DNA from: Anaerolineae bacterium | Lineage (GTDB): Bacteria > Chloroflexota > Anaerolineae > Promineifilales > Promineifilaceae | Reading direction: 5' to 3' | NCBI GenBank assembly: GCA_020848035.1 | Contig: JADLAX010000027.1 | Location: 41,528 to 73,527, forward strand | Length of the DNA stretch: 32,000 nucleotides | Shown: piece by piece, positions 1-32,000 of the stretch | Position numbering within the stretch: the first letter of the stretch is position 1 | Layout of the letters: every line of letters begins with the position of its first letter | Notes under the pieces: generated by a model | The model's database searches: none | The model's input: the letters and a program-made list of their open reading frames with translations, nothing else | What the model was told of the DNA's origin: nothing | Translations under genes and position numbers: made by a program

Positions 1-961
1 TCAGCGCCTGGCGGCACGGCTCGATGGAGCGCTTCACCAGCTCATCGGTCAGCTGTTCAAACTTGGCCCGGGAGAGGGTCAGGTTTAAATGCTTGGGTCC
101 GGTCGCATCGGCCGTTATATAGGGCAAATTAAGTTCGGTCTGCATGGTGGTAGACAGCTCGATCTTGGCTTTTTCGGACGCTTCCCGCAAACGCTGCAGC
201 GCCTGGCGGTCCTCACGCAGGTCGATGCCCTGGTCCATTTTGAACTGCTCGGCGGCCCAGTCGATAATCTTCTGGTCGAAGTCGTCACCGCCCAGGAAGG
301 TGTCGCCGTTGGTGGATTTCACCTCAAAAACGCCGTCGCCTACTTCCAGGATGGAAATATCGAAGGTACCGCCACCCAAATCGTAGACGGCAATCAGTTC
401 GTCGGCGTTGCTGCCCAGGCCATAGGCCAGGGACGAGGCCGTTGGCTCGTTGACGATGCGCAGCACTTCGAGGCCGGCAATCTTGCCTGCGTCCTTGGTT
501 GCCTGGCGCTGGCTGTCATTAAAGTAAGCGGGCACGGTGATAACTGCCTGGGTTACCGGCTGGCCCAAATAGGCTTCGGCATCGGCCTTGATTTTTTGCA
601 GGATCATGGCCGACACTTCCGGCGGGGAATATTCCCGATCGCTCAGCACAACACGCACATCACCATTGGGCGCTTTGCGCACTTCATAGGGGACGTATTT
701 CAGCGCTTTTTGCACCACGGGGTCATCAAATTTACGCCCCATGAAGCGCTTTACGGAAAAAACGGTGTTGAGCGGGTTGATGACCGCCTGACGCTTGGCT
801 ACCTGCCCCACTAATCGTTCGCCGGTTTTGGTGTTGATGGCGACGATGGAGGGGAAAGTACGGCCGCCTTCCGCGCTGGAGATGACAACCGGTTCGCCGC
901 CTTCCATAACGGCCGCTACGGAGTTTGTGGTTCCTAAATCGATTCCAATTATTTTGCCCAT
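1..961 (-). CDS. dnaK: Molecular chaperone DnaK (Hsp70), N-terminal ~320 codons; the C-terminal part lies beyond the window edge
   Basis: Absent from the ORF track because it runs off the window. The reverse complement from the ATG at 961-959 reads [27 protein letters not shown]...[20 protein letters not shown]...[12 protein letters not shown], the Hsp70 ATPase-domain signatures. It lies 23 nt downstream of grpE on the same strand. Confidence 0.95.
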
Positions 962-984
962 GTTTATTATTCCTTGTGTTTGTT

Positions 985-1560
985 TTACGCGGCTACGACA
1001 ACAAGCGACGGCCGTATCACACGATCTCCAATTTTGTACCCGGTTTGCAAGACGCGACAAACCACCCCGCTTTCGTACGCATCGGTCATTTCTTGGGTGA
1101 TGGCTTCATGCAGGTTTGGATCAAAAGGCTGCCCAACGGCTTCAATGGGGGTAACGTTAAACGTGTCCAGCGTTGCCAAAAGTTTGCGCTGCACCAGCTG
1201 GATACCTTCTAACCAGCTGTGGCCCTCAATTTCTGCGGGCAAATTTTCCATCGCCCGGTCAAAATCATCGACAATGGGCAGCAGCTTGTCGATGACGTTG
1301 GCCGTGGCATTGCCGTACGCATCGAGCCGCTGCTTTTCCATGCGCTTGCGGGCATTGGCAAACTCTGCCTGGCTGCGCAGCCAACGATCTTTGTAATCTT
1401 CGGCCTCGGCCTGAGCCGCGGCCAGCAGTTGTTCCACCGTGGGCGGTTCGGCCACGGCCGTTCCTGTCTCAACCTCGGTCACACCATCAGCGTCGTTGCC
1501 CGCGACTTCGGGTTCTTCCACGGCATTCTGAATTTCTTCAGCTCTGGATTGGTCATTCAC
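985..1560 (-). CDS. grpE: Nucleotide exchange factor GrpE
   Basis: 191-aa ORF with an acidic N-terminus followed by the GrpE core ([29 protein letters not shown]). It sits between hrcA and dnaK. Confidence 0.93.
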
Positions 1561-1574
1561 AAGCTCTTACCTCT

Positions 1575-2618
1575 CTAAACAGACTCTCTACGGTCTGGGT
1601 CTTCCAAATAGTAATCGTATACAAAACCGCTCATCAGGTTGGCCACATATTGCACGGCCGCGACGTTACGGCCGTATGACATGCGCGTCGGACCAATGAC
1701 AGCCACGGTACCGCTAAACTGGTCAGCCACACCGTAGCGGGAAAGAATAATCGAGCAATCTTTTAGCTCTTCCCAACGGCCGTCGCCGCCAATCACCACC
1801 TGCACCCCACCCGGCGACGTTTGCGTTTCGGCCAAAACATTCGCCAGCAAGGTCCGCTCTTCCAGCACCCGCACCGCCTGCCGGGTGCCTGCGTCCTCCA
1901 CAATATTCATCAATCCATCGCGGTAAATTTCGGTAATGGTGCGCGTATCGGAACGGCGCAGCGCTTCCAGCGTCAGCTTGGCCACGTCCGATTCCAGTTC
2001 GTCTAGATGCCCTGTATTCAAACGATAGATGGCCTCGTCATACGTAGCATCGGCCAGCAGCAAGTTCATACGGTCCGCCGCCGCGCTGAGGCGTGCCTGA
2101 GACAACGGTTCGGCCAGCGTCAGCATCTGCTGCTTCACCTCGCCGCCATACAGCACCAAAATCATCAGCACCAGGCGACCCTGCGTAGAAATGAGTTGGA
2201 GATGTTTAAAGCGGTTAGAGCGGGGGCGCGGCGCGGTCACAAAACTGGCCCCCAGGGAGGTGCGCGCCAGGATGGCCGCCGCCAGCTTCATCCACTGGTC
2301 CAGATCCAACCGGGCCTGGTGGAACTGGTGCCGGATCATCTGCTCTTCGTGGATGGGCAGGCGAAACTCACCCAGCAGCTTCTGCACAAAGTAGCGATAA
2401 CCAACCTCTGTAGGAATACGCCCGGCCGAGGTGTGCAGCTGGATCAGATAGCCCATCTCATCCAACGCCGCCAGTTCATGGCGCACCGTGGCCGAACTCA
2501 CGTCCAGGTCATACTGCTCAACCAGCCCTTTGGAACTCACCGGCTGGCCAGTTTCGACATAGGTACGAACAACTAAACCTAATATTTTTTCTTGTCGATC
2601 GGTCAGTATTTCAAACAT
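1575..2618 (-). CDS. hrcA: Heat-inducible transcriptional repressor HrcA
   Basis: The ORF track gives 1575-2678. The typical HrcA N-terminus (MFEILTDRQEKILGLVVRTYVETGQPVSS, winged helix) begins at the ATG at 2618, and the 20 extra codons fall inside a leader hairpin. A CIRCE element lies upstream and grpE-dnaK downstream. Confidence 0.92.
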   Translation of the reverse strand: MFEILTDRQEKILGLVVRTYVETGQPVSSKGLVEQYDLDVSSATVRHELAALDEMGYLIQLHTSAGRIPTEVGYRYFVQKLLGEFRLPIHEEQMIRHQFHQARLDLDQWMKLAAAILARTSLGASFVTAPRPRSNRFKHLQLISTQGRLVLMILVLYGGEVKQQMLTLAEPLSQARLSAAADRMNLLLADATYDEAIYRLNTGHLDELESDVAKLTLEALRRSDTRTITEIYRDGLMNIVEDAGTRQAVRVLEERTLLANVLAETQTSPGGVQVVIGGDGRWEELKDCSIILSRYGVADQFSGTVAVIGPTRMSYGRNVAAVQYVANLMSGFVYDYYLEDPDRRESV

Positions 2619-2638
2619 ATCGCGTTTCGACGAACATA

Positions 2639-2680
2639 CAATGAGACTAGTGTTGCCGCTTGCAAGTCCTAGTCTCATTG
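2639..2680 (-). promoter_or_regulatory. Perfect 12-bp stem / 18-nt loop hairpin in the hrcA 5' leader
   Basis: caatgagactag (2639-2650) pairs perfectly with ctagtctcattg (2669-2680). It lies between CIRCE and the hrcA ATG at 2618. Confidence 0.6.
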
Positions 2681-2694
2681 AGTTTGATATTTAG

Positions 2695-2805: not shown

Positions 2806-4284
2806 TTAGTCTTGAGAGGAGAGGGAAGTGGTATCAGACGGCCGTATCTCGTCCAGCGCATCGGGCAGGGGTTCCTTACGGCTTTTGCGCTCGATAATTT
2901 GCCAGATCGTGCGCAGGATAATTTTGAGATCGAGCAAAATCGACCAGTTTTCCATGTACCACAAATCGTACTTGGTCCGTTCGGCAATGGAGGTGTCACC
3001 GCGCAAACCATTGACCTGCGCCCAACCGGTCATGCCGCCCTTTTCTTGGTGGCGATCCATGTAGCGCGGCACCGTCTGGCGAAACTGCTCAACGTAATGC
3101 GCCTGCTCCGGGCGCGGTCCCACCAGGCTCATCTCGCCCAGCAGCACGTTGATCAGGTTGGGCAGCTCATCGGCCTCAATTTTGCGAATGAAAGTGCCCA
3201 ACCGCGTCTGGCGCGGATCGTTATCGGTGGTCCAGCCAGGACCGTTCCGTTCCGCATCACGCCTCATAGAGCGAAACTTGATCATGCGGAATGGCTTGGC
3301 GTCTAACCCCATGCGCTCCTGCACAAAAAAGACCGGGCCGGGCGATTCCAGCTTGATGGCCATGGCAATCAACATCATCAACGGCGAGAGGATTACCAGG
3401 CCAAACGCCGCCCCCAGCACATCCATCAACCGCTTGAAGATGAGCAGGTAGCCACGCAGCGCATAATCGCGCACAGAGAGCAGCGGCAGCCCGCCTAATT
3501 CGTCAATGCTGGCCTGGGAGGTCACAAATTGGAATACATCGGGGAAGATTTTGATAGAAACCCGGCCACGTTCACAGTAAGAAATGACGCGCACGGTTTC
3601 GCGATGCCCTTTTTCTGGCATTGCAATGATCACTTCATTGATACCGAGCTGCTCAATCAGCACGGGCAAATCTTCCGGGCTGCCTAGAATTGGCATGCCG
3701 CCAAATTCTTTGCCGTTGTCTAGCCCATTTACCACGCCCATTAGCTCATAGCCCAGGTAGGGTGAATGCAAAATGCGCTGGATTACCGCATAAGCCATGT
3801 CACCGGTGCCCACCACAATGAGCCGATCTTTGCCCCAGCCCCGGTTGCGCAGGGCTGCCCGCACCATTTGGTGCAGGGCACGGCCCAAAACCAGCAGCAC
3901 AATGGTGATGACCCAGGCATAAATGATCATCGCCCGGGGATAATCGAGGATCACCCGGTCGCCCTTAAACAAGAAGGTGGTGAGCGCTACGGCCAGCAGG
4001 GTGCCGATGGAAACGGCCGCAAACACATAATAAAATTGGTCAACGCGAGAAACCGCCCGGGGAATGTAATACAGACGATAAAAAAACAGGGCAACCACGA
4101 TGGAGATAATCTGCACCATCAGCAAACCGGAATAGGCATTCAACGGCACAGTCGTGGCCAACGGTTCGGGCCAATCGATGACAATCCTCAGCCGGTAAGC
4201 CAACACGAAAGCGACAGCGATGAGGAAGGCATCCAGGATCACCAGAGAAATGGTGTATATCGTGCGAATCCGCTGTGTGGACAT
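2806..4284 (-). CDS. Polyprenyl-phosphate glycosyl-1-phosphate transferase (bacterial sugar transferase, WbaP/EpsB-like; exopolysaccharide or O-antigen initiation)
   Basis: 492 aa. It has N-terminal TM helices, a central Rossmann-like region (LIVVGTGDMA), and the C-terminal bacterial sugar-transferase domain (PGPVFFVQERMGLDAKPFRMIKFRSM...DELPNLINVLLGEMSLVGPRP). Confidence 0.87.
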   Translation of the reverse strand: MSTQRIRTIYTISLVILDAFLIAVAFVLAYRLRIVIDWPEPLATTVPLNAYSGLLMVQIISIVVALFFYRLYYIPRAVSRVDQFYYVFAAVSIGTLLAVALTTFLFKGDRVILDYPRAMIIYAWVITIVLLVLGRALHQMVRAALRNRGWGKDRLIVVGTGDMAYAVIQRILHSPYLGYELMGVVNGLDNGKEFGGMPILGSPEDLPVLIEQLGINEVIIAMPEKGHRETVRVISYCERGRVSIKIFPDVFQFVTSQASIDELGGLPLLSVRDYALRGYLLIFKRLMDVLGAAFGLVILSPLMMLIAMAIKLESPGPVFFVQERMGLDAKPFRMIKFRSMRRDAERNGPGWTTDNDPRQTRLGTFIRKIEADELPNLINVLLGEMSLVGPRPEQAHYVEQFRQTVPRYMDRHQEKGGMTGWAQVNGLRGDTSIAERTKYDLWYMENWSILLDLKIILRTIWQIIERKSRKEPLPDALDEIRPSDTTSLSSQD

Positions 4285-4435
4285 GATGGTATTGTATCAA
4301 AGTGCCAGAGGGCAACCAACCGACCAGGCAACGGCCGTCTGCCGTTCAGTCTTTGTTAAACCTACGTCAACGGCGCATTCATAAATTGATCCTATAATAA
4401 TGACAGACCTTTCTAATTTTCTATGGAGCAAGCAC

Positions 4436-5659
4436 ATGATTTCCCGTTTAGCCTCTAGCCTTAGCGTTATTGTTTTGAGCATCATTGTTTTTCTGGGTGG
4501 CTACGTTTTAGGCCAATCGCCCGTCGCACCTGTTCAAGTTTTTGCGGATACGGCCGTTTCCCCGCCCACCACCGCCGAATTTGAACCCTTTTGGGAAGTG
4601 TGGGAGTTGGTCCACGAGCGTTACCTGCGCCAGCCGGTAGACAACACTGCGCTCGTGGAAGGTGCCATCGAAGGGATGCTGGCCGCGTTAGGCGATCCGC
4701 ATACCAGCTACCTCTCCCCCGCAGACCAGCAGGCCGCAGAAGAATCTATGGATGGCGAATTCCAGGGCATTGGGGCTGAAGTGGAGGACGTAGACGGCAA
4801 TATCACCGTTGTAGCTCCCATCGACGGCTCTCCGGCGGCCGCGGCGGGCATTCAACCGGGCGATATTTTGCGCATGGCCGATGGTGTGGAGCTAACCGGC
4901 ATGGACGTGACGGAAGCTGCGGCCCTGGTGCGCGGCCCGGCGGGCACCACCGTCAGCCTGGTCATTGAACGGGAGGGCGAACTGCTAAACATCGACATTG
5001 TGCGAGACGTGATTAAGCTGGCCACCGTGCGCGGTGAAATTTTAGACCAAGGCATTGCCTATCTGCGCCTGAGCCGCTTTGGCAATACGACCGACGAGGA
5101 GTTGGAAGAGCTTTTACCGGGGCTGCTGGCCGAAAATCCTTCCGGGTTGATTCTAGACCTGCGCCGCAACCCTGGCGGTTCCCTCGAAACGGTGGTGGAA
5201 ATCGCCGACCAGTTTTTGGGCGACGGTCTGGCCCTGGTGGAACGTTTTGGCGATGGGGAGGAACGGCCGTTTGAAATCAGCGACGACGGGCTGGCCCAGG
5301 ATATCCCCATGGTGGTGCTCATTGACGAAGGCAGCGCCAGTGCCTCAGAAGTGCTGGCTGGCGCGATCCAGGATCGCGGACGAGGCGTGCTGATTGGGCA
5401 GATTTCCTTTGGCAAGGGTACCGTGCAAACCTGGCACACCTTGTCCAACAATGGCGGTGTGCGGGTAACAATTGCCGAGTGGCTGACGCCCAATAAAAGC
5501 TCCATCGACCAGGTGGGCCTGACGCCCGATTACTACATTCCCCTGCCCGACGTAGAAAACGGAGCGGCGTTTGAAGATACGCAGCTGCAAGCAGCCATCG
5601 ACTTTTTGCAGGGCAAAACGGTTATCAGCATTCCCCCGGAACCCAATCTGGAAAATTAG
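4436..5659 (+). CDS. S41 family carboxyl-terminal processing protease (PDZ domain, Ctp-like)
   Basis: The ORF track start is 4400. The ATG at 4436 is preceded by GGAG (4425-4428) and gives a signal-anchor N-terminus (MISRLASSLSVIVLSIIVFLGG). A PDZ region (GIGAEV...SPAAAAGIQPGDIL) and the S41 catalytic region (LIDEGSASASEVLAGA) are present. Confidence 0.88.
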   Translation: MISRLASSLSVIVLSIIVFLGGYVLGQSPVAPVQVFADTAVSPPTTAEFEPFWEVWELVHERYLRQPVDNTALVEGAIEGMLAALGDPHTSYLSPADQQAAEESMDGEFQGIGAEVEDVDGNITVVAPIDGSPAAAAGIQPGDILRMADGVELTGMDVTEAAALVRGPAGTTVSLVIEREGELLNIDIVRDVIKLATVRGEILDQGIAYLRLSRFGNTTDEELEELLPGLLAENPSGLILDLRRNPGGSLETVVEIADQFLGDGLALVERFGDGEERPFEISDDGLAQDIPMVVLIDEGSASASEVLAGAIQDRGRGVLIGQISFGKGTVQTWHTLSNNGGVRVTIAEWLTPNKSSIDQVGLTPDYYIPLPDVENGAAFEDTQLQAAIDFLQGKTVISIPPEPNLEN

Positions 5660-5766: not shown

Positions 5767-7311
5767 TTGGCGATCATTCTCATTACCGGAGCAACCGACG
5801 GCATTGGTCTGGCATTGGCCCAGCAGTACACTTTGGCCAAACACCAGCTGATTTTGGTAGGACGACGGCCGTTTCCCCCCCACCCTGATCCGATGTTCAC
5901 CCCGCAAACCTACTGCCAGGCCGATCTGGCCCAGCCCGATGCCGCCGACACCATTGCCCACTGGCTGGAAAATCAGGGCATTCACACATTAGATTTGCTC
6001 ATCCACAACGCAGGAACCGGCTACTTTGGCGCGCTGGCCGCCCAGCCGCTGGACCAGATTGATGAGCTGCTCACCGCCAACCTGCACAGCCCAATCGCCA
6101 TCACCCACCGGCTGTTTCCCTGGTTGCAAAAGGCGCGGGGCCAGGTAGTGTTTGTCAGCTCGGTGGCGACGGCCGTTCCCACCCCCGAATACGCCGTCTA
6201 TGGGGCCAGCAAACTGGCGCTGGAAGGCTTTGCCCGCAGCCTGCGCGTGGAATGGCAGGGGCAGGTAACGGTGCAAACGATCCGGCCTGGGGCAACCCGC
6301 ACCGGAATGCACCAAAAAATCGGCCTGACCCAGGCACAAATGAATTGGGAAAAGTTTGCCCCGGCGGAAAAAGTGGCCCGCCAGATAATCCGGGCCATTG
6401 AACAGAAACGGCCGTCAGCCACCATCGGCTTGGGCAATCAATTGCTGCGCTTTGTGGGCAGAAACGGCCGTGTCCTGCTCGATCCTCTCCTACGCAGAAG
6501 AGCCACACCGCTTACCAGCCAGCCGACCAGGGCCAGCGCCGCGCCCATCTGCCTCATCACCGGGGCCGCCGACGGCATTGGCCGAGCGCTGGCGCTGCGT
6601 TATGCCCAGGCGGGCTATCACATCATTGGGCTGGACGTTGACGGCACCAAAGCGGCCCACACGCGAGCCGAGATCGTCGCCCAGGGCGGCCAGGCGGAAT
6701 TTATCCTGGGGGATTTGAGCAGCCGGGCCGAATTGGCCGCCATGCTGCCCCAACTGGCTACGCTTGGCCCATTCAGCTGCGTCATTCACAACGCAGGCAT
6801 CAGCGCCGTGGGGCGTTTTGAGGCGCTGCCACTGGACCGGCAGCAGGCGGTGCTGCACCTCAACTTGCATGCCCCGCTCTGGCTGACGGCCGAACTGTTC
6901 CGGCAAAAGTGGCTCATGCCGGACGCCCGCTTTATCTTCTTATCGTCGCTGTCTTATTTTGCCAGCTACCCGGGGGCGGCGGTCTATGCCGCCAGCAAGG
7001 ATGGCCTGGCCAACTATGCGCGCAGCCTGCAAGCCGCCTGGCGCGGCCGCTGCCTCACCGTGTTCCCTGGCCCGGTACGCACCGCCCACGCCCGCCGCTA
7101 CAGCCCAGACAACAGCCGGGAAGACGGCCGTATGCCCCCCGAAACGCTCGCCAACGCCATCTTCCGCGCCGAACAGGCAGGCAAATCCCGCCTAATTCCT
7201 GGCCCAGCCAACAGAATTATGGGATTCGCAGGTCATCTTTTCCCCGGCCTGCTGGAAATGGGGATGAAAAAGGTGATTTTGGAGAAGTTGGAGGAGAAGG
7301 TAATTGCGTAA
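5767..7311 (+). CDS. Tandem (double) short-chain dehydrogenase/reductase fusion protein
   Basis: Two complete SDR modules are present. Module 1 has ILITGATDGIG, HNAGTGYFG and YGASK. Module 2 has CLITGAADGIG, HNAGISAVG and YAASK. The start is moved from 5701 to the in-frame TTG at 5767, which has AGGAG (5756-5760) 6 nt upstream and gives the usual short SDR N-terminus. Confidence 0.85.
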   Translation: MAIILITGATDGIGLALAQQYTLAKHQLILVGRRPFPPHPDPMFTPQTYCQADLAQPDAADTIAHWLENQGIHTLDLLIHNAGTGYFGALAAQPLDQIDELLTANLHSPIAITHRLFPWLQKARGQVVFVSSVATAVPTPEYAVYGASKLALEGFARSLRVEWQGQVTVQTIRPGATRTGMHQKIGLTQAQMNWEKFAPAEKVARQIIRAIEQKRPSATIGLGNQLLRFVGRNGRVLLDPLLRRRATPLTSQPTRASAAPICLITGAADGIGRALALRYAQAGYHIIGLDVDGTKAAHTRAEIVAQGGQAEFILGDLSSRAELAAMLPQLATLGPFSCVIHNAGISAVGRFEALPLDRQQAVLHLNLHAPLWLTAELFRQKWLMPDARFIFLSSLSYFASYPGAAVYAASKDGLANYARSLQAAWRGRCLTVFPGPVRTAHARRYSPDNSREDGRMPPETLANAIFRAEQAGKSRLIPGPANRIMGFAGHLFPGLLEMGMKKVILEKLEEKVIA

Positions 7312-7328: not shown

Positions 7329-7849
7329 TATTGAGGCAAAAAGTCAAAACTGTCGATGATTGCCTCAGCAGCTTTCTCTGGCTCATACCCATCACCAATG
7401 GTAAAAATGACAGCCATCCGGTCTGAATTTTGGATCACGATTGTGTAAATTTCCATTTCGAAAGGAACATTGGCGGCTTGGATAATGTAAAAAGCAGATG
7501 CAATATCATATTTTGCGTGCTCGTAGGTGGACATTTGCACTCCGCTCAGAAGCTCTATATCTTTTAAATATTCATCAACTTGAAGTTGCACAGAATCAAC
7601 GGCCGTAGCCGCAGAAACCTCATCAAACACACGAATCCAAATCGTAACATCACCTTGTTCTTTTGCGTTAAACCAAACACCTTCATCTGGTTCACCCTGA
7701 TAAGGCTCCCAATAAGTTGGATGATTGATCGTAAAGCCCAAACTGGAATCGGTGTAAGTTTGATATCGCTGACATGCTGACAATGAAAAAAGCAGCATCA
7801 GCAAGAATACAAGAGGCTTCCGAACAAACTTTGGCACGAGTTTTTCCAT
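7328..7849 (-). CDS. Hypothetical lipoprotein (low-GC gene)
   Basis: 173 aa. Signal peptide with a lipobox (LLMLLFSLSAC). GC is about 40% in the two 60-nt stretches I counted, against about 60% in the flanks. No recognisable domain. Confidence 0.7.
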   Translation of the reverse strand: MEKLVPKFVRKPLVFLLMLLFSLSACQRYQTYTDSSLGFTINHPTYWEPYQGEPDEGVWFNAKEQGDVTIWIRVFDEVSAATAVDSVQLQVDEYLKDIELLSGVQMSTYEHAKYDIASAFYIIQAANVPFEMEIYTIVIQNSDRMAVIFTIGDGYEPEKAAEAIIDSFDFLPQ

Positions 7850-11642: not shown

Positions 11643-12038
11643 TCAACCTTTTAGGTTTGGTTTTCTCGCATTATCGAATATTTTGCGTTTCTTGGTAGCT
11701 GACGGCCCGAAGTTTAACAGTAGTCCTACTTCAAATGGCGTTGCCTTTAGATAATTTAGCAACTGCGCTTCATGTATCGGCAGCAAGCTCGCCACGGCCT
11801 TAAGCTCCACAATAATTTTGTCCTCAATTAACAAATCGGCAAAATACTCTCCTACAACTTCTCCACGATAATAAACCTGAATTGGTGCTTGCTGCTGCGC
11901 CTTTAGGCCTCTCGCCCGTAACTCTATTGCCATTGAGTTTTCGTAAACTCGTTCAAGAAAACCGTAACCCAGGCTGTTATAAACAGCGTAAAAAGCATCA
12001 ACGATTTGCTGCGTTACGTCCTGGTGTTTGTATTGCAT
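11643..12038 (-). CDS. GxxExxY family protein (PD-(D/E)XK nuclease-fold superfamily)
   Basis: 131 aa. It has the eponymous motif GFLERVY (LGYGFLERVYENSMAIEL) plus ADLLIEDKIIVELKA, a D...E-x-K-like core. GC is about 43% in the stretch I counted. Confidence 0.85.
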   Translation of the reverse strand: MQYKHQDVTQQIVDAFYAVYNSLGYGFLERVYENSMAIELRARGLKAQQQAPIQVYYRGEVVGEYFADLLIEDKIIVELKAVASLLPIHEAQLLNYLKATPFEVGLLLNFGPSATKKRKIFDNARKPNLKG

Positions 12039-13354: not shown

Positions 13355-13506
13355 ACTTGCCTCCCAAGTTCTTAAATGCAGAGGACGCAGGATGTGCAGG
13401 TGTGACTGCCTGTAGGCTGGGTCTTCTGGCAATAGTTGTGTAAAGATTGGGGTATATTATAGCCAGATCAGGGGGATTTTGTAGCGTGGGATGGGAAACG
13501 GCCGTA

Positions 13507-23791: not shown

Positions 23792-24847
23792 TTACGGCAG
23801 GCGTTCTAAAAAGTCCCCCAAGATGTGAACAAAATCGCCCGGCTTTTCAAAGTGGAAGCCGTGGCCCGAATCGACCTTCACAAAAACGACATCCGGGATA
23901 AGCGACCGGGCCAGTTCGGCATCTTTATCGTCCATCGCGGCCATCAAAATGCCTGCCTCGTCATAGCGCCAGTTGGTGTGGATGAGCACAGCGGGCACGC
24001 GGATGCGGCTCAGCGCGTCGGCGTGGTCAAATCCATCGTTCCACGAGCCGTCATAAAACGACGCGCCAAACCGGGGGTCGTAGGTGTGCAGCCCGCGCCA
24101 CAGCTCATTCATGACGGGCGGCATGTAGAACACTTTAACGGGTTCCTGGGGATATTTGGCCCGGTAGGTAAGCACGGTTTGGGTGAGCCGGGGCTGAAGC
24201 TCATTAAACAGGGTATAAAATTTGCCGTGCCGCACCTGGTAACTCACAAAATCTGTTTCGCCGCTGTTGACGAAGTTGTGGGCGGTGCTGGCCAGATCGA
24301 CGTAGTTCCAGGTTTTTTCGGCGCGTGGCAGCGTGGTGGTGAACAGCGGCGGGTCTTCCAGAATCACACCGCGCACGGTGTCCGGCGCGTTGGCGGCCAG
24401 CCACACCGCCAACAGCCCGCCAGACGAATGGCCAGACACCACGGCCGTTTCCCCAATCACCTCGCGGATAAACTGAGCCAGGTCACGCCCCAGCGCCGCG
24501 TTGGTATATTTTTCAGGAACACGGGCCGAACGGCCGTGTCCATAACAATCCACCGCAAAAACGTGGTACTGCTCCGCCAGGTCGGGCAGCACCCGGGCGT
24601 AGTTTTGCCAGTCTACCGCCTGCCCGTGAATCAGCAGCAGCGGCGGTCCGTTGTCCGGCCCTTCGGCATAGTTGATTTCACTGCCAGCGATGATGACCTG
24701 TTTTTCGACAAACCCGGCCCGCCACACGGCCGTCATGTTCCGCTTAAAGTAGGTCATGGTATGGAACACAAAAGCGCCCAGGCCCAAGGCGGCCAGCACC
24801 ACAACACCTGCCAAAATCCAAACGGCCGTACGCATCATCTTGTTCAC
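23792..24847 (-). CDS. Membrane-anchored alpha/beta hydrolase
   Basis: 351 aa. N-terminal TM helix, HG oxyanion motif (LLLIHGQAVDW), nucleophile elbow GHSSGG, and a late His (SGHGFHFE). Confidence 0.87.
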   Translation of the reverse strand: MNKMMRTAVWILAGVVVLAALGLGAFVFHTMTYFKRNMTAVWRAGFVEKQVIIAGSEINYAEGPDNGPPLLLIHGQAVDWQNYARVLPDLAEQYHVFAVDCYGHGRSARVPEKYTNAALGRDLAQFIREVIGETAVVSGHSSGGLLAVWLAANAPDTVRGVILEDPPLFTTTLPRAEKTWNYVDLASTAHNFVNSGETDFVSYQVRHGKFYTLFNELQPRLTQTVLTYRAKYPQEPVKVFYMPPVMNELWRGLHTYDPRFGASFYDGSWNDGFDHADALSRIRVPAVLIHTNWRYDEAGILMAAMDDKDAELARSLIPDVVFVKVDSGHGFHFEKPGDFVHILGDFLERLP

Positions 24848-25538: not shown

Positions 25539-25967
25539 CTACCAGGCCGCCAACTCTTTCTGGGCGATGATTTTGTCCACCTTGATCCGCACCAGCAGCT
25601 CGCCGGGCACGCTGTTGCGCTGGCCAAACGCTTCGGCCTGGTCTGCACCCATGTAGCGTGCACCAATGCGGGTGGCCCACTTCCGGCTCTCGGCCGGGTC
25701 GTCGGTAATTTCCACAGTGCCTTCCACCAGCACAAAGGCATACGGGGCTATTTCTTCATCAACGGTGAGGGCGATACGGCCGTCCCGCACCAAATTTTTC
25801 CCCTTCACCGATTCATGCCAGGTATTGAAGATCAAATCCTCCCCATCCAGCACAAACCAGATAGGGGCCACATGAGGACGGCCGTCGGCCCGTACCGTCG
25901 CCAACTTGCCCGTGCGCGTGCCCGTGGCCAGAAATTCATACGCTTCCGCCTTGCTCATCTTTTTCAT
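25539..25967 (-). CDS. Pyridoxamine 5'-phosphate oxidase (PPOX) family, probable F420-dependent class protein
   Basis: 142 aa. Typical split-barrel PPOX N-terminus (EAYEFLATGTRTGKLATVRADGRPHVAPIWFVLDGEDLIF). GGGAGG SD upstream. Confidence 0.82.
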   Translation of the reverse strand: MKKMSKAEAYEFLATGTRTGKLATVRADGRPHVAPIWFVLDGEDLIFNTWHESVKGKNLVRDGRIALTVDEEIAPYAFVLVEGTVEITDDPAESRKWATRIGARYMGADQAEAFGQRNSVPGELLVRIKVDKIIAQKELAAW

Positions 25968-26124
25968 CGTTTACCTCCCGGTTAAGTTTTTAGGTAGACA
26001 TCTGGTAGAATAGCATTCTTACGTCCCACGCTGAAGAAGGAATGGGATTACGGCCGTTCTTAGTACCGCTTAATCATTTTAGGCCAAAATTGTGGGAGAA
26101 TAGAGCGTAAGTGCATAATCGAGT

Positions 26125-26263: not shown

Positions 26264-29170
26264 ATGAGTCGTGACAACTGGGACATCCCAGAAGTGTTTC
26301 GCCGGGCTATGGAAGAGGCCGGCTGGGAAGGCAATAAAGGTGAGGGCAATGAAGGGGGCGAAGGCGGCGGTCAGCGCCCGCCCATTCCCAATCGCCCAAC
26401 ACAGCCGGGCCGCAGCAACCGCAGTTGGTGGATCGTTGGCATTCTCTTTTTGTTGTTCATCAGCCTCAACTGGATAGTGGGGGTTTATACCGATTGGCTC
26501 TGGTTCAACGAGCTAAATTACCAGAGCGTCTGGCTAAAGCGCTGGAGCTACCAGCTGGGCAGCTTTATCGCCTTTTTTCTAGTTGCCTTCCTTATTTTCT
26601 GGGGCAACTGGCGGCTGGCACGCCAGCGGGCTATCAAGGCCACCCCGCCGTTTTACCCGCGTTTTCTGCAAATCCGCGGCATCCCCTGGCTCATGAGTGG
26701 CGCGGCCCTTTTGTTGGCCTTTGGCTTTGCCAGCTCTATTGCCGTGCGCTGGGACGAATTTCTGCTTTTTCTCAACCGCGTACCTTTTGGCACGGCCGAT
26801 CCCATCTTTGGCCGCGATATCAGCTTCTATCTGTTTGAGCTGCCCGTCTACGAGGCGCTGCAGCAGTGGGCCAGCTCCTTGCTGCTGCTGACGCTGCTGG
26901 GCGTGCTGGCCATTTACGCTGTGAACAACATCGTTGATATTCAGCGGGGCAAGTGGCGGCCGCAGGAATCGGTAATTTTGCGGCAGCATGTGGCCCTGCT
27001 GGCGGCACTGATTTTGCTGCTGTGGGCTGTAGGCTACCTGTTCCAGATTTTTAACCTCAACTATTCACCCCGTGGGGTGGTGTTTGGGGCCAGCTACACC
27101 GACATGAACGCGACGATCTATGCCCTGTATGCCCAAATGGCCTTCATGGGGCTGGCGGCGCTGGTGATGTTGTTTAATGTCTTTCGGCTGAGTTTACGGC
27201 CGTTGCTCCTCATTGGCGCTCTCTGGCTGGCGGCCACAGTGTTGCTGGGTGGCGTCTATCCCGCTATCTTACAGCGGTACGAAGTGGAACCCAATGAACT
27301 GGTGCGCGAGACACCCTACATCCAGTACAACATCGAATTTACCCGCCTGGGCTTTAACCTGGACAAGATTGAAGTACGCAACTTCAGCGAGGTTGATACC
27401 CTAAGCCAGGGTGACGTTACAACCAACAGCGCCGTGTTGTCGAACATTCGCTTGTGGGATTATCGGCCATTACAGCTTACCTTCACCCAATTGCAGGCGT
27501 TACGGCCGTATTACGTCTTTGGTGAAGTCGATATCGATCGCTACGAAATTGACGGTGAAATCCAGCAAGTCATGCTGGCCGCCCGCGAACTCGACAAAAG
27601 CAAGCTATCTTCCCTCTCCTGGGTCAACGAAAGGCTGGAATTCACCCACGGCTATGGCATCGTCATGAACCCCGTCGACCGCTTTACCACCGACGGCCAG
27701 CCCGAATTTTTCATCAAAAACCTGCCGCCAGAGAGTGAAATCCCGCTGCAAGTTACCCGCCCCGAAATCTACTACGGCGAATTCACCAATGACGAGGTGT
27801 TTGTTGGCAGCGCCCGCGAAGAGTTTAGCTACCCCAGCGGTAACGAAAACGTCTACTCCAGCTACGAAGGCAGCGGCGGTGTACCGCTCGACAACTTCCT
27901 CAAACGCATAGCCTTTGCCCTCCGCCTCGGCGACGCCAACGTCCTGCTCAGCGATGAAATCAACACCCAAACCCGGGTGCAAATCCACCGCCAGATTCAG
28001 GAACGGGTGCGGCTGCTGACCCCCTTCCTGGCCCTGGACAGCGATCCCTACGTGGTGCTCACGAATGATGGCAACCTCATCTGGGTGCAGGATGCCTTTA
28101 CCTACAGCAGGCGTTTCCCCTACGCGACACCCAACAGCATCCTGCCCAACAGCGATATTCCCGGCGAGCTTGCCAATATTAACTACGTGCGCAACGCCGT
28201 TAAAATCACCATTGATGCCTACAACGGAACCGTCAACTACTACGTTGTGGACGAACAAGACCCCATCATCCAATCATACAGCCGTGCCTTCCCTGGTCTC
28301 TTTAAGCCGTTCAGCGAAATGCCGGAAAATCTGCAAAACCATCTACGCTACCCGGAAGATTTGTTCACCATTCAGGCGCAGCAATACCTGCGCTACCACA
28401 TGACCGACGTCCGCGTTTTCTTCAACCAGGAAGACGTGTGGCAAATCCCGCAAGAGGTGTATGAAGGCAATCAGCAGCTAATGGAGCCGTACTATGTCAT
28501 CATGCCGCTGCCTGGGGAAACAGAAAGTGAATACTTACTTATCCAACCGTTTAACCCCACCGGCAAAGACAACATGATCGCCTGGATGGCCGCCCGCAAC
28601 GATCCCGCCAACTACGGCCAGTTGGTGATGTATGAACTGCCCAAGCAGGAGCTTGTTTTTGGCCCGATGCAAATCGAAAGCCGCATCAACCAGGATTCCT
28701 TCATCTCGCAGCAGTTTGCCCTCTGGGATCAGGGTGGCTCCAACGTGCTGCGCGGCAATCTGCTGGTGATTCCTCTGGGCAACAGCTTTTTGTACGTGGA
28801 ACCCATCTACCTGCAAGCCTCAACCAGCGCTCTGCCCGAACTCAAGCGGGTGATCGTGGCCACCGATACCCGGATCGCCATGGATTTGACGCTAGACCGG
28901 GCCTTAACGGCCCTGCTGGCCGCCGAGCCGGGCGAAATTACGCCTGAGCTTGAAGGGCTGGAAACGGCCGAAGATCCAGTACCCGAACCAACTACACCCA
29001 CCATCCCCACTGCCCCGCTTGATGCCTCCGTGGAAGAGCTGATCGCCTCGGCCAACGCCCACTTTGAAGCGGCTCAAGCAGCCCAGCAAAGCGGCGATTG
29101 GGCCACCTACGGCGCTGAATTGAAAGCTCTGGAAAGTGACCTGGCCCGGTTAATGGAACTGACGGAGTAG
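26264..29170 (+). CDS. UPF0182 family large membrane protein
   Basis: 968 aa. Gly/Glu/Pro-rich N-terminus, about 7 TM helices, then a large soluble region with UPF0182-typical stretches (YIQYNIEFTR, LWDYRPL, LRPYYVFGEVDIDRY, LIQPFNPTGKDNMIAWMAA). Confidence 0.88.
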   Translation: MSRDNWDIPEVFRRAMEEAGWEGNKGEGNEGGEGGGQRPPIPNRPTQPGRSNRSWWIVGILFLLFISLNWIVGVYTDWLWFNELNYQSVWLKRWSYQLGSFIAFFLVAFLIFWGNWRLARQRAIKATPPFYPRFLQIRGIPWLMSGAALLLAFGFASSIAVRWDEFLLFLNRVPFGTADPIFGRDISFYLFELPVYEALQQWASSLLLLTLLGVLAIYAVNNIVDIQRGKWRPQESVILRQHVALLAALILLLWAVGYLFQIFNLNYSPRGVVFGASYTDMNATIYALYAQMAFMGLAALVMLFNVFRLSLRPLLLIGALWLAATVLLGGVYPAILQRYEVEPNELVRETPYIQYNIEFTRLGFNLDKIEVRNFSEVDTLSQGDVTTNSAVLSNIRLWDYRPLQLTFTQLQALRPYYVFGEVDIDRYEIDGEIQQVMLAARELDKSKLSSLSWVNERLEFTHGYGIVMNPVDRFTTDGQPEFFIKNLPPESEIPLQVTRPEIYYGEFTNDEVFVGSAREEFSYPSGNENVYSSYEGSGGVPLDNFLKRIAFALRLGDANVLLSDEINTQTRVQIHRQIQERVRLLTPFLALDSDPYVVLTNDGNLIWVQDAFTYSRRFPYATPNSILPNSDIPGELANINYVRNAVKITIDAYNGTVNYYVVDEQDPIIQSYSRAFPGLFKPFSEMPENLQNHLRYPEDLFTIQAQQYLRYHMTDVRVFFNQEDVWQIPQEVYEGNQQLMEPYYVIMPLPGETESEYLLIQPFNPTGKDNMIAWMAARNDPANYGQLVMYELPKQELVFGPMQIESRINQDSFISQQFALWDQGGSNVLRGNLLVIPLGNSFLYVEPIYLQASTSALPELKRVIVATDTRIAMDLTLDRALTALLAAEPGEITPELEGLETAEDPVPEPTTPTIPTAPLDASVEELIASANAHFEAAQAAQQSGDWATYGAELKALESDLARLMELTE

Positions 29171-29239: not shown

Positions 29240-29316
29240 GGGCTGTTTTGGCTTTCACTTCTCATTTTTCTGTCAAGTCCTAAAATAAGTTGACACAAAA
29301 TAGTGACTACTTCACA

Positions 29317-30132: not shown

Positions 30133-30155
30133 TTGGTCGGCTTGCCGGATATGGT

Positions 30156-30521
30156 CTATGATTTCTTGCCGAAATTTTTTTTAAGGTCTAGGCGCAACGC
30201 TTCACTGGCCACCGTGAGTGTCGCTTCCAACATGCGGTTATCCAGGGTACTTTGAGCCAGGGCTGATTCCAACTCGGCGACCCGTCGTTTGAGTGCTTTG
30301 AGCCCCTCCTGGTCTTCGGCTGTTTGGATGACTACCAGCTCGGCACGGTAACCAAAACGGCCGTATCGTTCGATCCATCGTTGCACGGTGAGATGCGACC
30401 CGATACCGTATTTGTCGCGCAAGCTGTAAATGCTGGCCCCGGCTTCATATTCACGCACAACTTGTTGCTTGAAGGCCAGGCTGTAACGTCTGACGGTTTC
30501 TTTTTTCATAAGGTTGCCCAT
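30156..30521 (-). CDS. IS3-family transposase OrfA (HTH)
   Basis: 121 aa. RRYSLAFKQQVVREYEAGASIYSLRDKYGIGSHLTVQRWIERY HTH region plus a leucine-zipper-like tail. The alternative start is the ATG at 30509. Confidence 0.88.
   Translation of the reverse strand: MGNLMKKETVRRYSLAFKQQVVREYEAGASIYSLRDKYGIGSHLTVQRWIERYGRFGYRAELVVIQTAEDQEGLKALKRRVAELESALAQSTLDNRMLEATLTVASEALRLDLKKNFGKKS
30175..30182 (-). other. A8 slippery run: candidate programmed -1 ribosomal frameshift site of the IS3 transposase
   Basis: The minus strand reads CTT AAA AAA AAT near the end of orfA. The orfB frame is exactly -1 relative to orfA (first-base coordinates are 2 mod 3 for orfA and 0 mod 3 for orfB). Confidence 0.7.
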
Positions 30522-30572
30522 CCTAAAGGGTAATTATATCTGTCAACTATATTTAGGACGGGTCAGGTCATT

Positions 30573-30612
30573 CACTTCTCACTTCTCACTTCTCACTTTT
30601 TACTTCTCACTG
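30573..30612. repeat. Phased heptamer array CACTTCT (about 5.5 units)
   Basis: cacttct cacttct cacttct cactttt tacttct cactg, directly after the IS3 right end and 7 nt before the DinB-family ATG. A remnant, tttcacttctcattttt, lies on the other side of the IS (29254-29270). Confidence 0.85.
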
Positions 30613-30618
30613 TCAAAC

Positions 30619-31083
30619 ATGAGTAAACGTGCCGTTCTCCTGGATGCCCTGGCCAGTATGCCCCAAGATGTGGCTTTCATGCTGCGCCGGGCGGAGGGGA
30701 CGGCCGTTTACCACCGCCCTACCCCCCAGGAATGGTCCATCGCCGATGTGCTGCTGCACCTGGCCACGATGGAACGACTGGTCCTGACCCGGCTGCAAAA
30801 GATCGTTCAGGAGGAACGGCCGTTTCTCCCCACCCTTCACCCGGAAACCCAACCAGAACCCGATCCCCGACCGCTGGCCGAGCTGGTAACGGCCGTCCAC
30901 GACGCCCGCCAGCAAACCCTCACCTTCCTCCATACCCTCAAGGCAGGCGATTGGCAGCGAACGGCCGTGCACGAAACCCTCGGCGCAACCAGGTTTCGCT
31001 TCATGGTCCAGCTCCTCGTCGACCACGACACCGAGCATCTCAACCAGATCATCGAAATTCAAACCAGTCTCAAATCCCGCTAA
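30619..31083 (+). CDS. DinB-family (DinB_2 four-helix bundle) protein
   Basis: The ORF track start at 30514 lies inside the IS terminal repeat. The ATG at 30619 gives MSKRAVLLDALASMP... with DinB-type His motifs (DVLLHLATMERL, LLVDHDTEHLNQI). Confidence 0.82.
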   Translation: MSKRAVLLDALASMPQDVAFMLRRAEGTAVYHRPTPQEWSIADVLLHLATMERLVLTRLQKIVQEERPFLPTLHPETQPEPDPRPLAELVTAVHDARQQTLTFLHTLKAGDWQRTAVHETLGATRFRFMVQLLVDHDTEHLNQIIEIQTSLKSR

Positions 31084-31115
31084 CGATATTTTTCCGGAAT
31101 CCGTCGATTTCAGTT

Positions 31116-31182
31116 GTCATTCCCGCGTAGGCGGGAATCTACTCCGGTGAACCTGATGGATACCCGCCTACGCGGGTATGAC
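31116..31182. repeat. REP/BIME-like pair of inverted GC-rich hairpins
   Basis: gtcATTCCCGCgtagGCGGGAAT (31116-31138) and ATACCCGCctacGCGGGTATgac (31160-31182). Each forms an 8-bp stem with a 4-nt loop. The two arms are 21/23 reverse complements, separated by a 21-nt spacer. Confidence 0.7.
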
Positions 31183-31351
31183 ACACTTTCTGAAGCTGCC
31201 GTATGGAAAGATCGTACTGAACGCTAAATTCCCCGGCCGCGCGGTTGACAGTGGCGCAGAAAACGTTAAGCTTCCAGCTGTGATGACTGGCTGCGACCCA
31301 ACGGCCGTACCCGCCAGGAGGCATCACCATTCCGTCATGATGAGGTTACCG

Positions 31352-32000
31352 ATGAACAAACTTGAACAACTGCTGGCAGACAACGATTACCTGATCGCCG
31401 ATGGCGGCATGGGCACCATGCTCATGGCCGCCGGTTTGGAGCAGGGCGATCCGCCAGAAATGTGGAACATTCTGCATCCCGACCGCATTCGCGCCGTGCA
31501 TCGTGGGTATATCGAAGCCGGTTCCCAGATTATTCTCACCAACTCCTTTGGCGGCACCTGCTTCCGCCTCAAGCTGCACAAGCTGCAAGACCGCGCCTTT
31601 GAGCTGAACAAAGCCGCTGCCGAACTGGCCCGCGCCGAAGCCGACGCCGCCGACCATCCGGTGGTGGTGGGCGGCTCGCTTGGCCCGTCGGGCGAAATTA
31701 TGGAGCCAGTCGGTGCGCTTAGCTTTGCTGAGGCCGTGGCCGGGTTTGCCGAGCAAGCCGCCGGGCTGGCCGCTGGCGGCGTAGACGTGCTGTGGATCGA
31801 AACGATGAGCGACATCAGCGAGGTGCGCGCTGCCGTTGAAGGCTGCCGCCAGGCGACCGACCTGCCCATTGTGGCCACGATGACCTTTGACACCAACGGC
31901 CGTACCATGATGGGCGTCACCCCGGCGCAGGCGTATGCCGAACTCAGCGCCATGAACCTCACCGCCCTGGGTGGCAACTGCGGCAATGGCCCGGCCGAAA
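31352..32000 (+). CDS. Homocysteine S-methyltransferase domain protein (MetH N-terminal module or stand-alone Hcy methyltransferase), 5' part; continues beyond the window
   Basis: Not in the ORF track because it is open-ended. ATG at 31352 with GAGG 6 nt upstream. It reads MNKLEQLLADNDYLIADGGMGTMLMAAGL...IILTNSFGG...VDVLWIETMSD...ALGGNCGNGP, the Hcy-binding (S-methyl_trans) domain signatures. Confidence 0.87.
   Translation, partial: MNKLEQLLADNDYLIADGGMGTMLMAAGLEQGDPPEMWNILHPDRIRAVHRGYIEAGSQIILTNSFGGTCFRLKLHKLQDRAFELNKAAAELARAEADAADHPVVVGGSLGPSGEIMEPVGALSFAEAVAGFAEQAAGLAAGGVDVLWIETMSDISEVRAAVEGCRQATDLPIVATMTFDTNGRTMMGVTPAQAYAELSAMNLTALGGNCGNGPAE

Follow-up and report, generated by a model that had tools for sequence, protein, structure and literature searches.

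A hyper-abundant 8-bp palindrome, ACGGCCGT, is a highly iterated palindrome of a Promineifilaceae (Chloroflexota) lineage

The DNA analysed here, which we call the window throughout, is a 32-kb stretch of contig JADLAX010000027.1 from an Anaerolineae bacterium (assembly GCA_020848035.1), and our subject is an eight-base word, ACGGCCGT, that occurs in it 60 times. Our gene model has 30 genes that take up 90% of the window. They begin with a partial dnaK, grpE, hrcA, a sugar transferase gene and genes for a CtpB-like peptidase and a double short-chain dehydrogenase, and continue with recN, a tetratricopeptide repeat (TPR) protein gene, an NAD kinase gene, a PDDEXK_3 gene, hisS, a glyoxalase gene and an ABM gene. 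There follow genes for a Cas4-like nuclease, a zinc alcohol dehydrogenase (Zn-ADH) and an unknown protein of 474 amino acids, then secF, secD, an acyltransferase gene and a tocopherol-cyclase-like gene; the last part holds genes for a Zn-ribbon protein and a hydrolase, a PNPOx-like gene, a UPF0182 gene, an IS3 element and a DinB_2 gene. Scans for tRNA genes and Rfam families found nothing in the window. The word itself is a perfect 8-bp palindrome of 75% GC, made of the EagI-type hexamer CGGCCG with A and T as its outer bases. We conclude that it is a highly iterated palindrome (HIP) of an uncultured lineage within the Promineifilaceae, a free-standing 8-bp word that is held at about 1.9 per kb by a sequence-specific pressure acting at the level of DNA.

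The 60 exact copies correspond to one per 533 bases, or 1875 per Mb, and an exact search returned the same 60 positions that the original prediction had given. Dinucleotide-preserving shuffles of the window (n=100) contained a mean of 0.64 copies and a maximum of 4, and Markov models built from the window expect 0.76, 0.66, 1.27 and 2.8 copies at orders 0, 1, 2 and 3, so that the observed/expected ratio (O/E) is about 20–90, depending on Markov order, where about 50-fold or more had been claimed at the outset; the window GC content, put there at about 58%, measured 56.5%. Among the other palindromic octamers the commonest has 5 copies. At orders 4, 5 and 6 the expectation rises to 7.3, 22.6 and 52.9. 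This rise is circular because the sub-words derive from ACGGCCGT itself, which accounts for 60 of the 91 CGGCCG, 60 of the 74 ACGGCCG and 60 of the 65 CGGCCGT in the window. The proposed comparison of octamer counts with Markov expectation thus bears out the excess at orders 0–3 and comes close to the observed number at order 6, where circularity deprives a ratio near 1 of any power to refute it. In place of orders 4–6 we relied on low orders, a site-masked background and synonymous-codon shuffles. In the 480 kb pooled from the clade that carries the word (described below), an order-3 model with sites masked expects about 12 copies per strand against 845 observed, an excess of about 70-fold. 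That the sequence is no assembly oddity is shown by the exact RecN protein of the window, which is also present on two Logan contigs assembled independently.

The pressure is specific for exactly eight bases. One-off variants that differ at a terminal base number 19 in the window (ACGGCCGC 9, ACGGCCGA 5, TCGGCCGT 2, CCGGCCGT 2 and GCGGCCGT 1), within the 15–20 estimated earlier, and inner one-off variants number 6; the full palindrome is the favoured form. The pressure also acts in every reading frame and in spacers, where the copies had been read from the sequence. Genes hold 55 of the 60 sites, divided 21/17/17 among the three frames and encoding T-A-V, [NDHY]-G-R or R-P-[FLSYCW], with the N-G-R pair at 9407 and 9431 in recN among them; the other five sites are in spacers, about the non-coding share of the window (10%). 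The four spacer copies named in the original prediction (4331, 13498, 26050 and 31301) are all there, and the copy at 31896 also lies outside any credible gene.

Peptides of the types TAV, xGR and RPx are common in the proteins of the window, which could suggest that the excess is a by-product of common peptides or, more broadly, of composition, codon usage or a longer dispersed repeat such as a repetitive extragenic palindromic (REP) sequence or a miniature inverted-repeat transposable element (MITE); the maximal-order Markov value, near the observed 60, would point the same way were it not circular. Shuffling synonymous codons with proteins and codon usage kept (500 trials) gave 4.8 copies of ACGGCCGT, with a maximum of 11, against 55 observed in coding sequence. 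The word occupies 55 of the 59 positions that the proteins permit (93%), and the peptides that permit it are enriched 3–5 fold: TAV occurs 21 times against 4.3 expected, [NDHY]GR 18 against 5.7 and RP[FLSYCW] 22 against 7.7. These peptides are enriched only because of the word. At the positions of window sites, outgroup peptides are word-compatible in 53 of 228 cases and word-free relatives have other peptides at 77%, so most sites needed an amino-acid change. The claim that no codon or peptide effect underlies the excess is upheld, and the case shows a pressure that shapes proteins: it fills nearly all positions that the proteins tolerate and overrides codon choice and many amino acids.

Nor do the copies belong to one longer repeat, as had also been maintained, since their flanks are unconserved, with about 0.4 bit of information or less outside the eight bases. 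An A at position −1 is found at 31 of the 60 window sites and at 53% of pooled-clade sites, and T at +1 likewise in about half; the weak extension to AACGGCCGTT, seen at 29% of sites, matches independence of the two half-site preferences. The flank bias reported earlier is weak, and nothing is conserved beyond it. Spacing between sites is near-exponential (coefficient of variation 1.08), and no short-range periodicity was found at the scales visible in loci of 20–32 kb. Together with the unconserved flanks and the codon-shuffle result, this excludes longer dispersed repeats and codon effects. The same spacing bears on the idea that ACGGCCGT is bound by an abundant protein that is nucleoid-associated or organises the chromosome, with selection on the distribution of sites along the chromosome. 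While a palindrome suits a dimeric binding protein, and a 10–100 kb periodicity of HIP1, the cyanobacterial HIP, has been read as a structural role (PMC5861425), near-exponential spacing at locus scale, the filling of nearly all permitted positions and the forced amino-acid changes indicate pervasive pressure and not spaced sites. We find this idea very doubtful.

For comparison with relatives, a SecD-based scan that took one genome per species gave 80 loci, all from Chloroflexota metagenome-assembled genomes (MAGs) and numbered here with the prefix L. The readable DNA of each relative is a piece of roughly 20 kb around secD; that of the window's own genome is the 32 kb of the window. The closest SecD loci are those of the Chloroflexota MAG KLAP72, at 95% identity, and of Ca. 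Leptofilum and Promineifilaceae genomes at 84–89%, and the NCBI lineage is Chloroflexota; Ardenticatenia; Promineifilales; Promineifilaceae. On the SecDF tree, the clade that carries ACGGCCGT comprises the window and 27 related loci, L003–L027, L033 and L045, with 0.5–3.2 sites per kb (median 1.7).

We placed the window sites on these relatives through codon alignments. In clade members at 74–79% nucleotide identity, 75–100% of window sites are kept against 12–18% of control octamers; at 63–66% identity about half are kept, against 4–7% of controls; and in family members without the word, at 61–63% identity, none of 16–19 is kept. Among near relatives identity is 0.94 at the site and 0.79 in its flanks, with the step exactly over the eight bases. 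The corresponding values are 0.79 and 0.66 in far relatives that carry the word, and 0.64 and 0.64 in family members that lack it. Sites are thus conserved beyond their flanks, the outcome that the ortholog alignment suggested in the original prediction was meant to look for, and they are held at orthologous positions across family-level divergence. Near relatives have 24 sites of their own against 20 found only in the window, and such a balance of gains and losses fits saturation or equilibrium. Many sites, for example in secD, secF, the Zn-ADH gene, hisS and the NAD kinase gene, are common to almost all clade members compared. Conservation extends to the non-coding site at 13498. Between them, the unconserved flanks, the outgroup peptides, the codon shuffle and the identity step over eight bases refute the reading of the excess as an artefact of composition, coding or repeats, to which we give next to no probability.

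Outside the clade the word changes. In neighbouring clades, L029 has CGGCCG with mixed flanks, at 107 copies in 15.6 kb (6.9/kb), as do L038, L043 and L054 at 3.5–4.3/kb; L028 (JACKCB01) has CCGGCCGG, with 56 copies in 21.3 kb against 2.0 in shuffles, and L069 has 30 copies of the same word. The outer-base preference therefore differs between clades. In a separate clade, L034 (OZ244996.1, Promineifilaceae), L035, L037 and L047 carry TGCCGGCA, which in L034 is present 39 times in 21.4 kb (0.76 in shuffles). This word is ACGGCCGT read backwards, equal to its complement, and its core is GCCGGC. L034 has no CGGCCG and only 3 GGCC at 51% GC, a restriction-like footprint of avoidance. Counts of palindromic octamers in about 26 loci of more distant Anaerolineae found none that is hyper-abundant. 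The word has thus been exchanged between sister clades.

Traces of an older state may be visible. The CGGCCG core is present in other family members at 14–38% of the orthologous positions of window sites, where the background is 0.1–0.5% per position, and in the word-poor loci L032, L036, L040, L046, L049 and L031 at 12 of 83 orthologous positions, with a background of about 0.1% per position. These putative relict cores fit an ancestral enrichment of CGGCCG that was later restricted at its flanks, decayed or was replaced; alternatively, the same tolerant positions may have gained the core convergently. It is plausible, and we stand about midway between accepting and doubting it, that the Promineifilaceae HIP arose independently of cyanobacteria and that its word was re-specified several times within the family: an ancestral CGGCCG core became A-CGGCCG-T, C-CGGCCG-G or flank-free, or was replaced by T-GCCGGC-A. 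Among metagenome contigs we noted some that are denser in ACGGCCGT than the window, namely L253:1-12463 (Ga0116151_10001610), with 3.8/kb at 65% GC, and L262, with 6.7/kb over 2.3 kb; with such word-rich contigs, ACGGCCGT spans hosts of 43–67% GC.

The individual sites are exact matches, which have no strand because the word is palindromic; the sign in brackets is the strand of the gene, and 'kept x/y' means that the orthologous position carries ACGGCCGT in x of y clade relatives. At the left end, grpE (−) has sites at 1008..1015 (frame 2, I-R-P-S) and 1454..1461 (frame 0, T-A-V), hrcA (−) at 1668..1675 (frame 1, Y-G-R) and 1776..1783 (frame 1, D-G-R), and the sugar transferase gene (−) at 2838..2845 (frame 2, I-R-P-S). 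The intergenic site at 4331..4338 lies in the divergent spacer between the sugar transferase gene and the ctpB-like gene, and the latter (+) contains 4550..4557 (frame 0, T-A-V) and 5263..5270 (frame 2, E-R-P-F; kept 1/2). Five sites fall in the double adh_short gene (+): 5865..5872 (frame 2, R-R-P-F), 6169..6176 (frame 0, T-A-V), 6408..6415 (frame 2, K-R-P-S), 6464..6471 (frame 1, N-G-R) and 7124..7131 (frame 1, D-G-R; kept 1/1). One more, 7599..7606 (frame 0, T-A-V), is in a hypothetical gene of 173 amino acids (−).

The six sites of recN (−) are 8016..8023 (frame 0, T-A-V; kept 4/4), 8153..8160 (frame 1, D-G-R; kept 4/6), 8250..8257 and 8595..8602 (both frame 0, T-A-V; kept 3/6 each), and 9407..9414 and 9431..9438 (both frame 1, N-G-R; kept 7/7 each). 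The site at 10553..10560 in the TPR/B-box gene (−; frame 0, T-A-V) is kept 0/8 and is therefore specific to the window's lineage. Those at 11219..11226 in the NAD kinase gene (−; frame 1, N-G-R) and 12151..12158 in hisS (−; frame 2, V-R-P-L) are kept 9/9 and 10/10. At 13498..13505, in the spacer between hisS and the glyoxalase gene, the orthologous word is ACGGCCGT in L004, L006 and L010. The Cas4-like PD-(D/E)XK gene (−) has 14401..14408 (frame 2, I-R-P-S; kept 8/13) and 14630..14637 (frame 1, D-G-R; kept 6/13). Within the Zn-ADH gene (−), the site at 15181..15188 is at the 3′ end (frame 2, I-R-P-stop), followed by 15427..15434 (frame 2, V-R-P-L; kept 12/16), 15651..15658 (frame 0, T-A-V; kept 15/16) and 15667..15674 (frame 2, I-R-P-S; kept 7/16). 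Sites in the hypothetical 474-aa gene (−) are 16256..16263 (frame 0, T-A-V; kept 3/10), 16556..16563 (frame 0, T-A-V; kept 8/16) and 16936..16943 (frame 1, D-G-R; kept 15/18). The protein of this last gene (16153–17577, −), which lies between the Zn-ADH gene and secF, belongs to no Pfam family; it is conserved in the family at 28–90% identity and has no match in the more distant Anaerolineae loci that contain secF-secD.

Three sites in secF (−) are at 17633..17640 (frame 0, T-A-V; kept 20/27), 17823..17830 (frame 2, K-R-P-L; kept 14/27) and 17903..17910 (frame 0, T-A-V; kept 22/27), and the one in secD (−), at 18620..18627 (frame 0, T-A-V), is kept 26/27, with ACCGCCAT or ACGGCCAT in the outgroups. 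Then come 20045..20052 (frame 2, I-R-P-L) and 20215..20222 (frame 0, T-A-V) in the acyltransferase_3 gene (−). All four sites of the tocopherol-cyclase-like gene (−) are kept in L003: 21189..21196 and 21630..21637 (both frame 1, N-G-R), 21779..21786 (frame 2, G-R-P-W) and 22070..22077 (frame 2, K-R-P-F). So are 22250..22257 in the Zn-ribbon protein gene (−; frame 1, D-G-R) and, in the alpha/beta hydrolase gene (−), 24441..24448 (frame 0, T-A-V), 24530..24537 (frame 1, H-G-R) and 24726..24733 (frame 0, T-A-V); for the fourth site of the hydrolase gene, 24822..24829 (frame 0, T-A-V), L003 reads ACGATTAT. The PNPOx-like gene (−) has 25776..25783 and 25878..25885 (both frame 1, D-G-R), its divergent spacer with UPF0182 has the intergenic site 26050..26057, and the UPF0182 gene (+) has 27196..27203 (frame 2, L-R-P-L) and 27502..27509 (frame 2, L-R-P-Y). 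The longest site-free stretch of the window, 2855 bases, follows the 27502 site and spans the rest of UPF0182 and IS3 orfB. Beyond it, 30357..30364 (frame 1, Y-G-R) in IS3 orfA (−) is the sole site in the IS3 element of about 1.2 kb, and the DinB_2 gene (+) has 30700..30707 (frame 0, T-A-V), 30816..30823 (frame 2, E-R-P-F), 30889..30896 and 30961..30968 (both frame 0, T-A-V). The last two sites are 31301..31308, which is intergenic, and 31896..31903, where the overlapping open reading frame (ORF) 31387–31986 (−) scores negative for coding and matches no Pfam family.

The density of the word varies with constraint and with the origin of the DNA. Highly conserved genes have little of it: dnaK has no ACGGCCGT in 960 nt, and secD, hisS and UPF0182 have about 0.7/kb, against 3–7/kb in less constrained genes. 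As an aside on dnaK (2–961, −), the ORF at 89–814 (+) that matches Pfam PF10712 ('NAD-specific glutamate dehydrogenase') is its antisense shadow and not a gene. Acquired DNA is poor in the word. The IS3-family element (29317–30521, −), with orfA (HTH_Tnp_1) and orfB (rve), has its single site in about 1.2 kb; that it is multicopy is clear from its exact OrfB protein, present on 8 contigs that come from six sequencing runs and are mostly collapsed repeats of 1.3 kb. The PDDEXK_3 gene (11643–12038, −) has no ACGGCCGT and a GC content at third codon positions of 0.42, against about 0.7 in its neighbours; the only relative with it is L008, and the gene has probably been inserted recently into its place between those for NAD kinase and hisS.

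Resident mobile elements are another matter. A scan of IMG/VR for clusters of ACGGCCGT found about 25 contigs with 2–4 sites per kb. The phage or prophage contig L351:3-8206 (IMGVR_UViG_3300022675_000018) has a host-like 2.2/kb, with sites inside its terminase, portal and protease-capsid genes, and L326:1256-3661, which encodes a tape-measure protein, has 1.7/kb. Plasmid-like contigs, or ones resembling integrative and conjugative elements, reach 3.5–4/kb (L098:1-13185, and L151, L335, L342 and L348, which are one 65-kb contig) and encode ParA/ParB, FtsK/SpoIIIE-like proteins, a transglycosylase, an anti-repressor and a phosphoadenosine phosphosulfate (PAPS)-reductase-like protein. A search of PLSDB with the L098 FtsK-like protein found no Chloroflexota plasmids. 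From these word-rich contigs it follows that the pressure acts on resident mobile elements too. We rejected a comparison of their density with that of the chromosome, since these contigs were picked out by a scan that looked for site clusters and are biased accordingly.

Word-rich phages and plasmids are also what host-tag mimicry predicts if ACGGCCGT is a Chi-like palindromic 'self' tag, read by a RecBCD/AddAB-type helicase-nuclease or a defence system that spares or recombines word-rich DNA. Like Chi, the word is short, GC-rich, lineage-specific and over-represented, a likeness that Elhai notes for HIPs (PMC4390886), and a preprint on HIP1 reports a Chi-like boost of homologous recombination (bioRxiv 10.1101/2024.09.10.611283). 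The density on mobile elements carries the sampling bias just mentioned; the Chi sites known so far lack symmetry and follow the direction of replication, as a palindrome cannot, and their excess is far below about 70-fold. We consider a tag of this kind improbable.

The anatomy of the word and its near misses is what one might expect of an enzyme's recognition site: it has a classical 6-bp type II core, and among one-off variants only those at the outer base are in excess. In the clade, A is the 5′ flank of 75% of CGGCCG half-sites. Outer-base variants in the pooled clade stand at 4.6x for T, 2.8x for G and 1.0x for C, and inner ones at 0.4–1.2x. Across the pooled 480 kb the 6-bp palindromes CCTAGG, CTCGAG, GGGCCC, ACTAGT, GAGCTC, GTCGAC and GGATCC are strongly avoided (O/E 0.03–0.18), which is probably the mark of restriction systems, present or past. 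Restriction sites are usually avoided, and CGGCCG stands out as the opposite.

We infer that the word would be read by a protein acting as a dimer, such as those that recognise type II sites, most likely a solitary DNA modification enzyme with CGGCCG specificity and a preference at the outer bases. Its activity might be that of a 5-methylcytosine, N4-methylcytosine or N6-methyladenine methyltransferase (m5C, m4C or m6A) or, conceivably, of a phosphorothioation system. Modified sites would be favoured by a step of repair, recombination or DNA uptake, as proposed for HIP1; conversion or replacement of one-off words would go on up to saturation of the genome; and a change of word would follow the replacement or re-targeting of the enzyme. 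The complete exchange of the core from CGGCCG to GCCGGC in one clade looks like such a replacement. Whether a modification enzyme coupled to biased repair, recombination or uptake favours the word in this way seems to us evenly poised between yes and no. If the word did arise independently of cyanobacteria and was re-specified within the family, this would imply a portable and re-targetable genome-wide sequence drive, in which an enzyme that recognises or modifies DNA works together with repair, recombination or uptake; it would rewrite thousands of codons and mark resident phages and plasmids, and it would offer a second independent natural system, with built-in specificity-swap controls, for the study of HIP function.

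Several observations weigh against a modification enzyme as the source of the pressure. Neither the window nor the 80 syntenic loci contained a methyltransferase, Vsr-type nuclease or competence gene, and about 0.5 Mb of viral and metagenomic DNA rich in the word added none beyond the restriction-modification system described below, which is probably of CCNGG type. In the pooled clade, selective loss of C-to-T products was not seen (O/E 1.02 for ATGGCCGT, 0.72 for ACGGCTGT/ACAGCCGT and 0.86 for ACGGTCGT/ACGACCGT), so a simple drive by Vsr-like T:G repair is not visible. Drive and selection are inseparable with present data, and the anatomy would be no different if, with no modification involved, uptake were biased or a protein bound the word.

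The search for an enzyme turned up several candidates, all set aside. Pfam searches of all ORFs in the window returned no methyltransferase, Vsr-like nuclease or restriction enzyme. We scanned the 80 SecD loci, 120 and a further 33 viral loci and 120 metagenome loci for the methyltransferase motifs PCQxFS/ENV and [DNS]PP[YFW], and most matches are not methyltransferases by Pfam. The sole restriction-modification system found, at L350:8314-10738, sits beside an IS1595 transposase on a word-rich mobile element and pairs an MvaI/BcnI-family nuclease with an N6_N4 methyltransferase bearing an SPPY motif (L350:9015-9827). We rejected it as the ACGGCCGT enzyme because its MvaI/BcnI partner makes it probably CCNGG-type, unrelated to CGGCCG. 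A protein encoded at L151:2546-3640 has a methyltransferase-like fold with FTP/DPAVGSG and is without the catalytic NPPY motif. A lead towards phosphorothioation by Dnd proteins failed as well, since the PAPS-reductase-like protein of L151 reaches 103 bits where the cut-off for DndC is 290 and so is not DndC.

An uptake or 'self' recognition sequence, of the kind known as DNA uptake sequence (DUS) or uptake signal sequence (USS), would require no modification: the preference of a competence receptor together with homologous recombination would drive the word to about 1–2 per kb. Such densities, sites in every frame, a reshaped proteome and lineage dialects are classical features of uptake sequences. 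ACGGCCGT has all of these, with core positions shared among its dialects, and newly arrived DNA (the IS3 element and the PDDEXK_3 gene) is poor in the word or without it. Uptake sequences are the subject of Frye et al. 2013 and Findlay and Redfield 2009, as cited in PMC3497702, and HIP1 itself is now proposed as an uptake or transformation signal: its abundance goes along with type IV secretion system proteins, a relation that the authors connect with uptake of DNA (bioRxiv 10.64898/2026.06.24.733823), and methylated HIP1 raises natural transformation more than 100-fold and boosts recombination (bioRxiv 10.1101/2024.09.10.611283). Known uptake sequences are 9–12 nt long and asymmetric, whereas ACGGCCGT and its sister words are perfect palindromes on type II sites; in one clade the core has been altered at every base, which resembles enzyme replacement more than the gradual drift of a receptor; and no enrichment was seen at gene ends or terminators, the intergenic share of 5 in 60 being close to the non-coding fraction. 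We think an uptake sequence unlikely, if well short of far-fetched.

Whatever reads it, ACGGCCGT behaves like HIP1, as the original prediction had held: it is present at 1.9/kb, its near misses lie at the outer bases, its sites are conserved beyond their flanks and it is replaced by other words in related lineages (compare Elhai 2015, PMC4390886, and Xu et al. 2018, PMC5861425). Six mechanistic hallmarks can be taken from Elhai (2015); five were tested and all five are found here, and for the sixth, a cognate methyltransferase, no gene was found in the 32 kb of the window or the pieces of roughly 20 kb from relatives. A host outside the cyanobacteria departs from the taxonomic habit of known HIPs and not from a mechanistic criterion. 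The described words are HIP1 (GCGATCGC) and the alternates GGGATCCC, TCGATCGA, GGCGCC, GCsGC and rCCGGy, all cyanobacterial and none with CGGCCG (Elhai 2015, PMC4390886). This agrees with the earlier statement that no HIP with the present word was known, and we found no report of the word itself, of a HIP in Chloroflexota or Promineifilum, or of over-represented CGGCCG, in the searchable full-text literature, a scope that most subscription journals lie outside.

What the finding means follows from this. The function of HIP1 has been an open question for about 30 years, and the phenomenon has so far been treated as a cyanobacterial peculiarity; the same anatomy in a second, unrelated phylum makes it general. 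Four word types within one family and a resolvable tree turn the matter into a comparative question, namely which gene changes with each change of word. The Promineifilaceae are common filamentous bacteria of activated sludge, and ACGGCCGT is a practical marker for binning their genomes, for assigning phages and plasmids to them as hosts and for spotting recently acquired DNA in them.

Among the known systems, REP sequences, bacterial interspersed mosaic elements (BIMEs) and MITEs share the high copy number and palindromic character of ACGGCCGT, but are 20–150 nt long and intergenic with conserved flanks, while ACGGCCGT is a bare and mostly genic octamer. Chi sites are likewise short, GC-rich and over-represented with a word that varies by lineage, but they are asymmetric, oriented with replication and modestly enriched, and a palindrome has no orientation. 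DUS of Neisseriaceae and USS of Pasteurellaceae occur at about 1 per kb, with family-level dialects, an effect on protein sequences and accumulation by molecular drive and not through a need for each single site; they differ in not being palindromic, in having a known receptor (ComP) or a demonstrated uptake bias, and in that DUS often form inverted pairs at terminators.

Very short patch (VSP) repair at Dcm sites (CCWGG) of E. coli is a methylation-linked repair in which near misses are turned into the methylated word, with a bias in oligonucleotide frequencies as the result; its effect is small, with a clear deficit of T-containing near misses, whereas here the excess is some 70-fold and no deficit is seen. 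For Dnd phosphorothioation, no dnd genes were seen here, and the L151 protein lies far below the DndC cut-off. We know of no genome-wide enrichment of the target in Dnd hosts. The likeness lies in the target itself, since in Streptomyces lividans CGGCCG is the preferred context of the modification (GpsGCC; PMC6435447).

The cyanobacterial HIPs are the closest match. They too are GC-rich palindromes with a 6-bp type-II-like core and one flanking base on each side, present at 1000–2000 copies per Mb in all frames and in spacers. They too are conserved between genomes beyond flanks and codons, are scarce in recently acquired DNA and give way to other palindromes in particular lineages, and the GCCGGC core of TGCCGGCA fits the alternate rCCGGy. 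The one-off variants of HIP1 concentrate at the first and last base (PMC4390886), as they do here. The differences are the host, here Promineifilaceae of the Chloroflexota, a word without GATC in its core, and the modification enzymes: every cyanobacterial HIP has a cognate methyltransferase (PMC4390886), and for their CGATCG and GATC methyltransferases no counterpart was found in the DNA read here. New to the comparison, then, is that HIP systems extend to a second phylum, in which the word is a new one and a single family holds several dialects.

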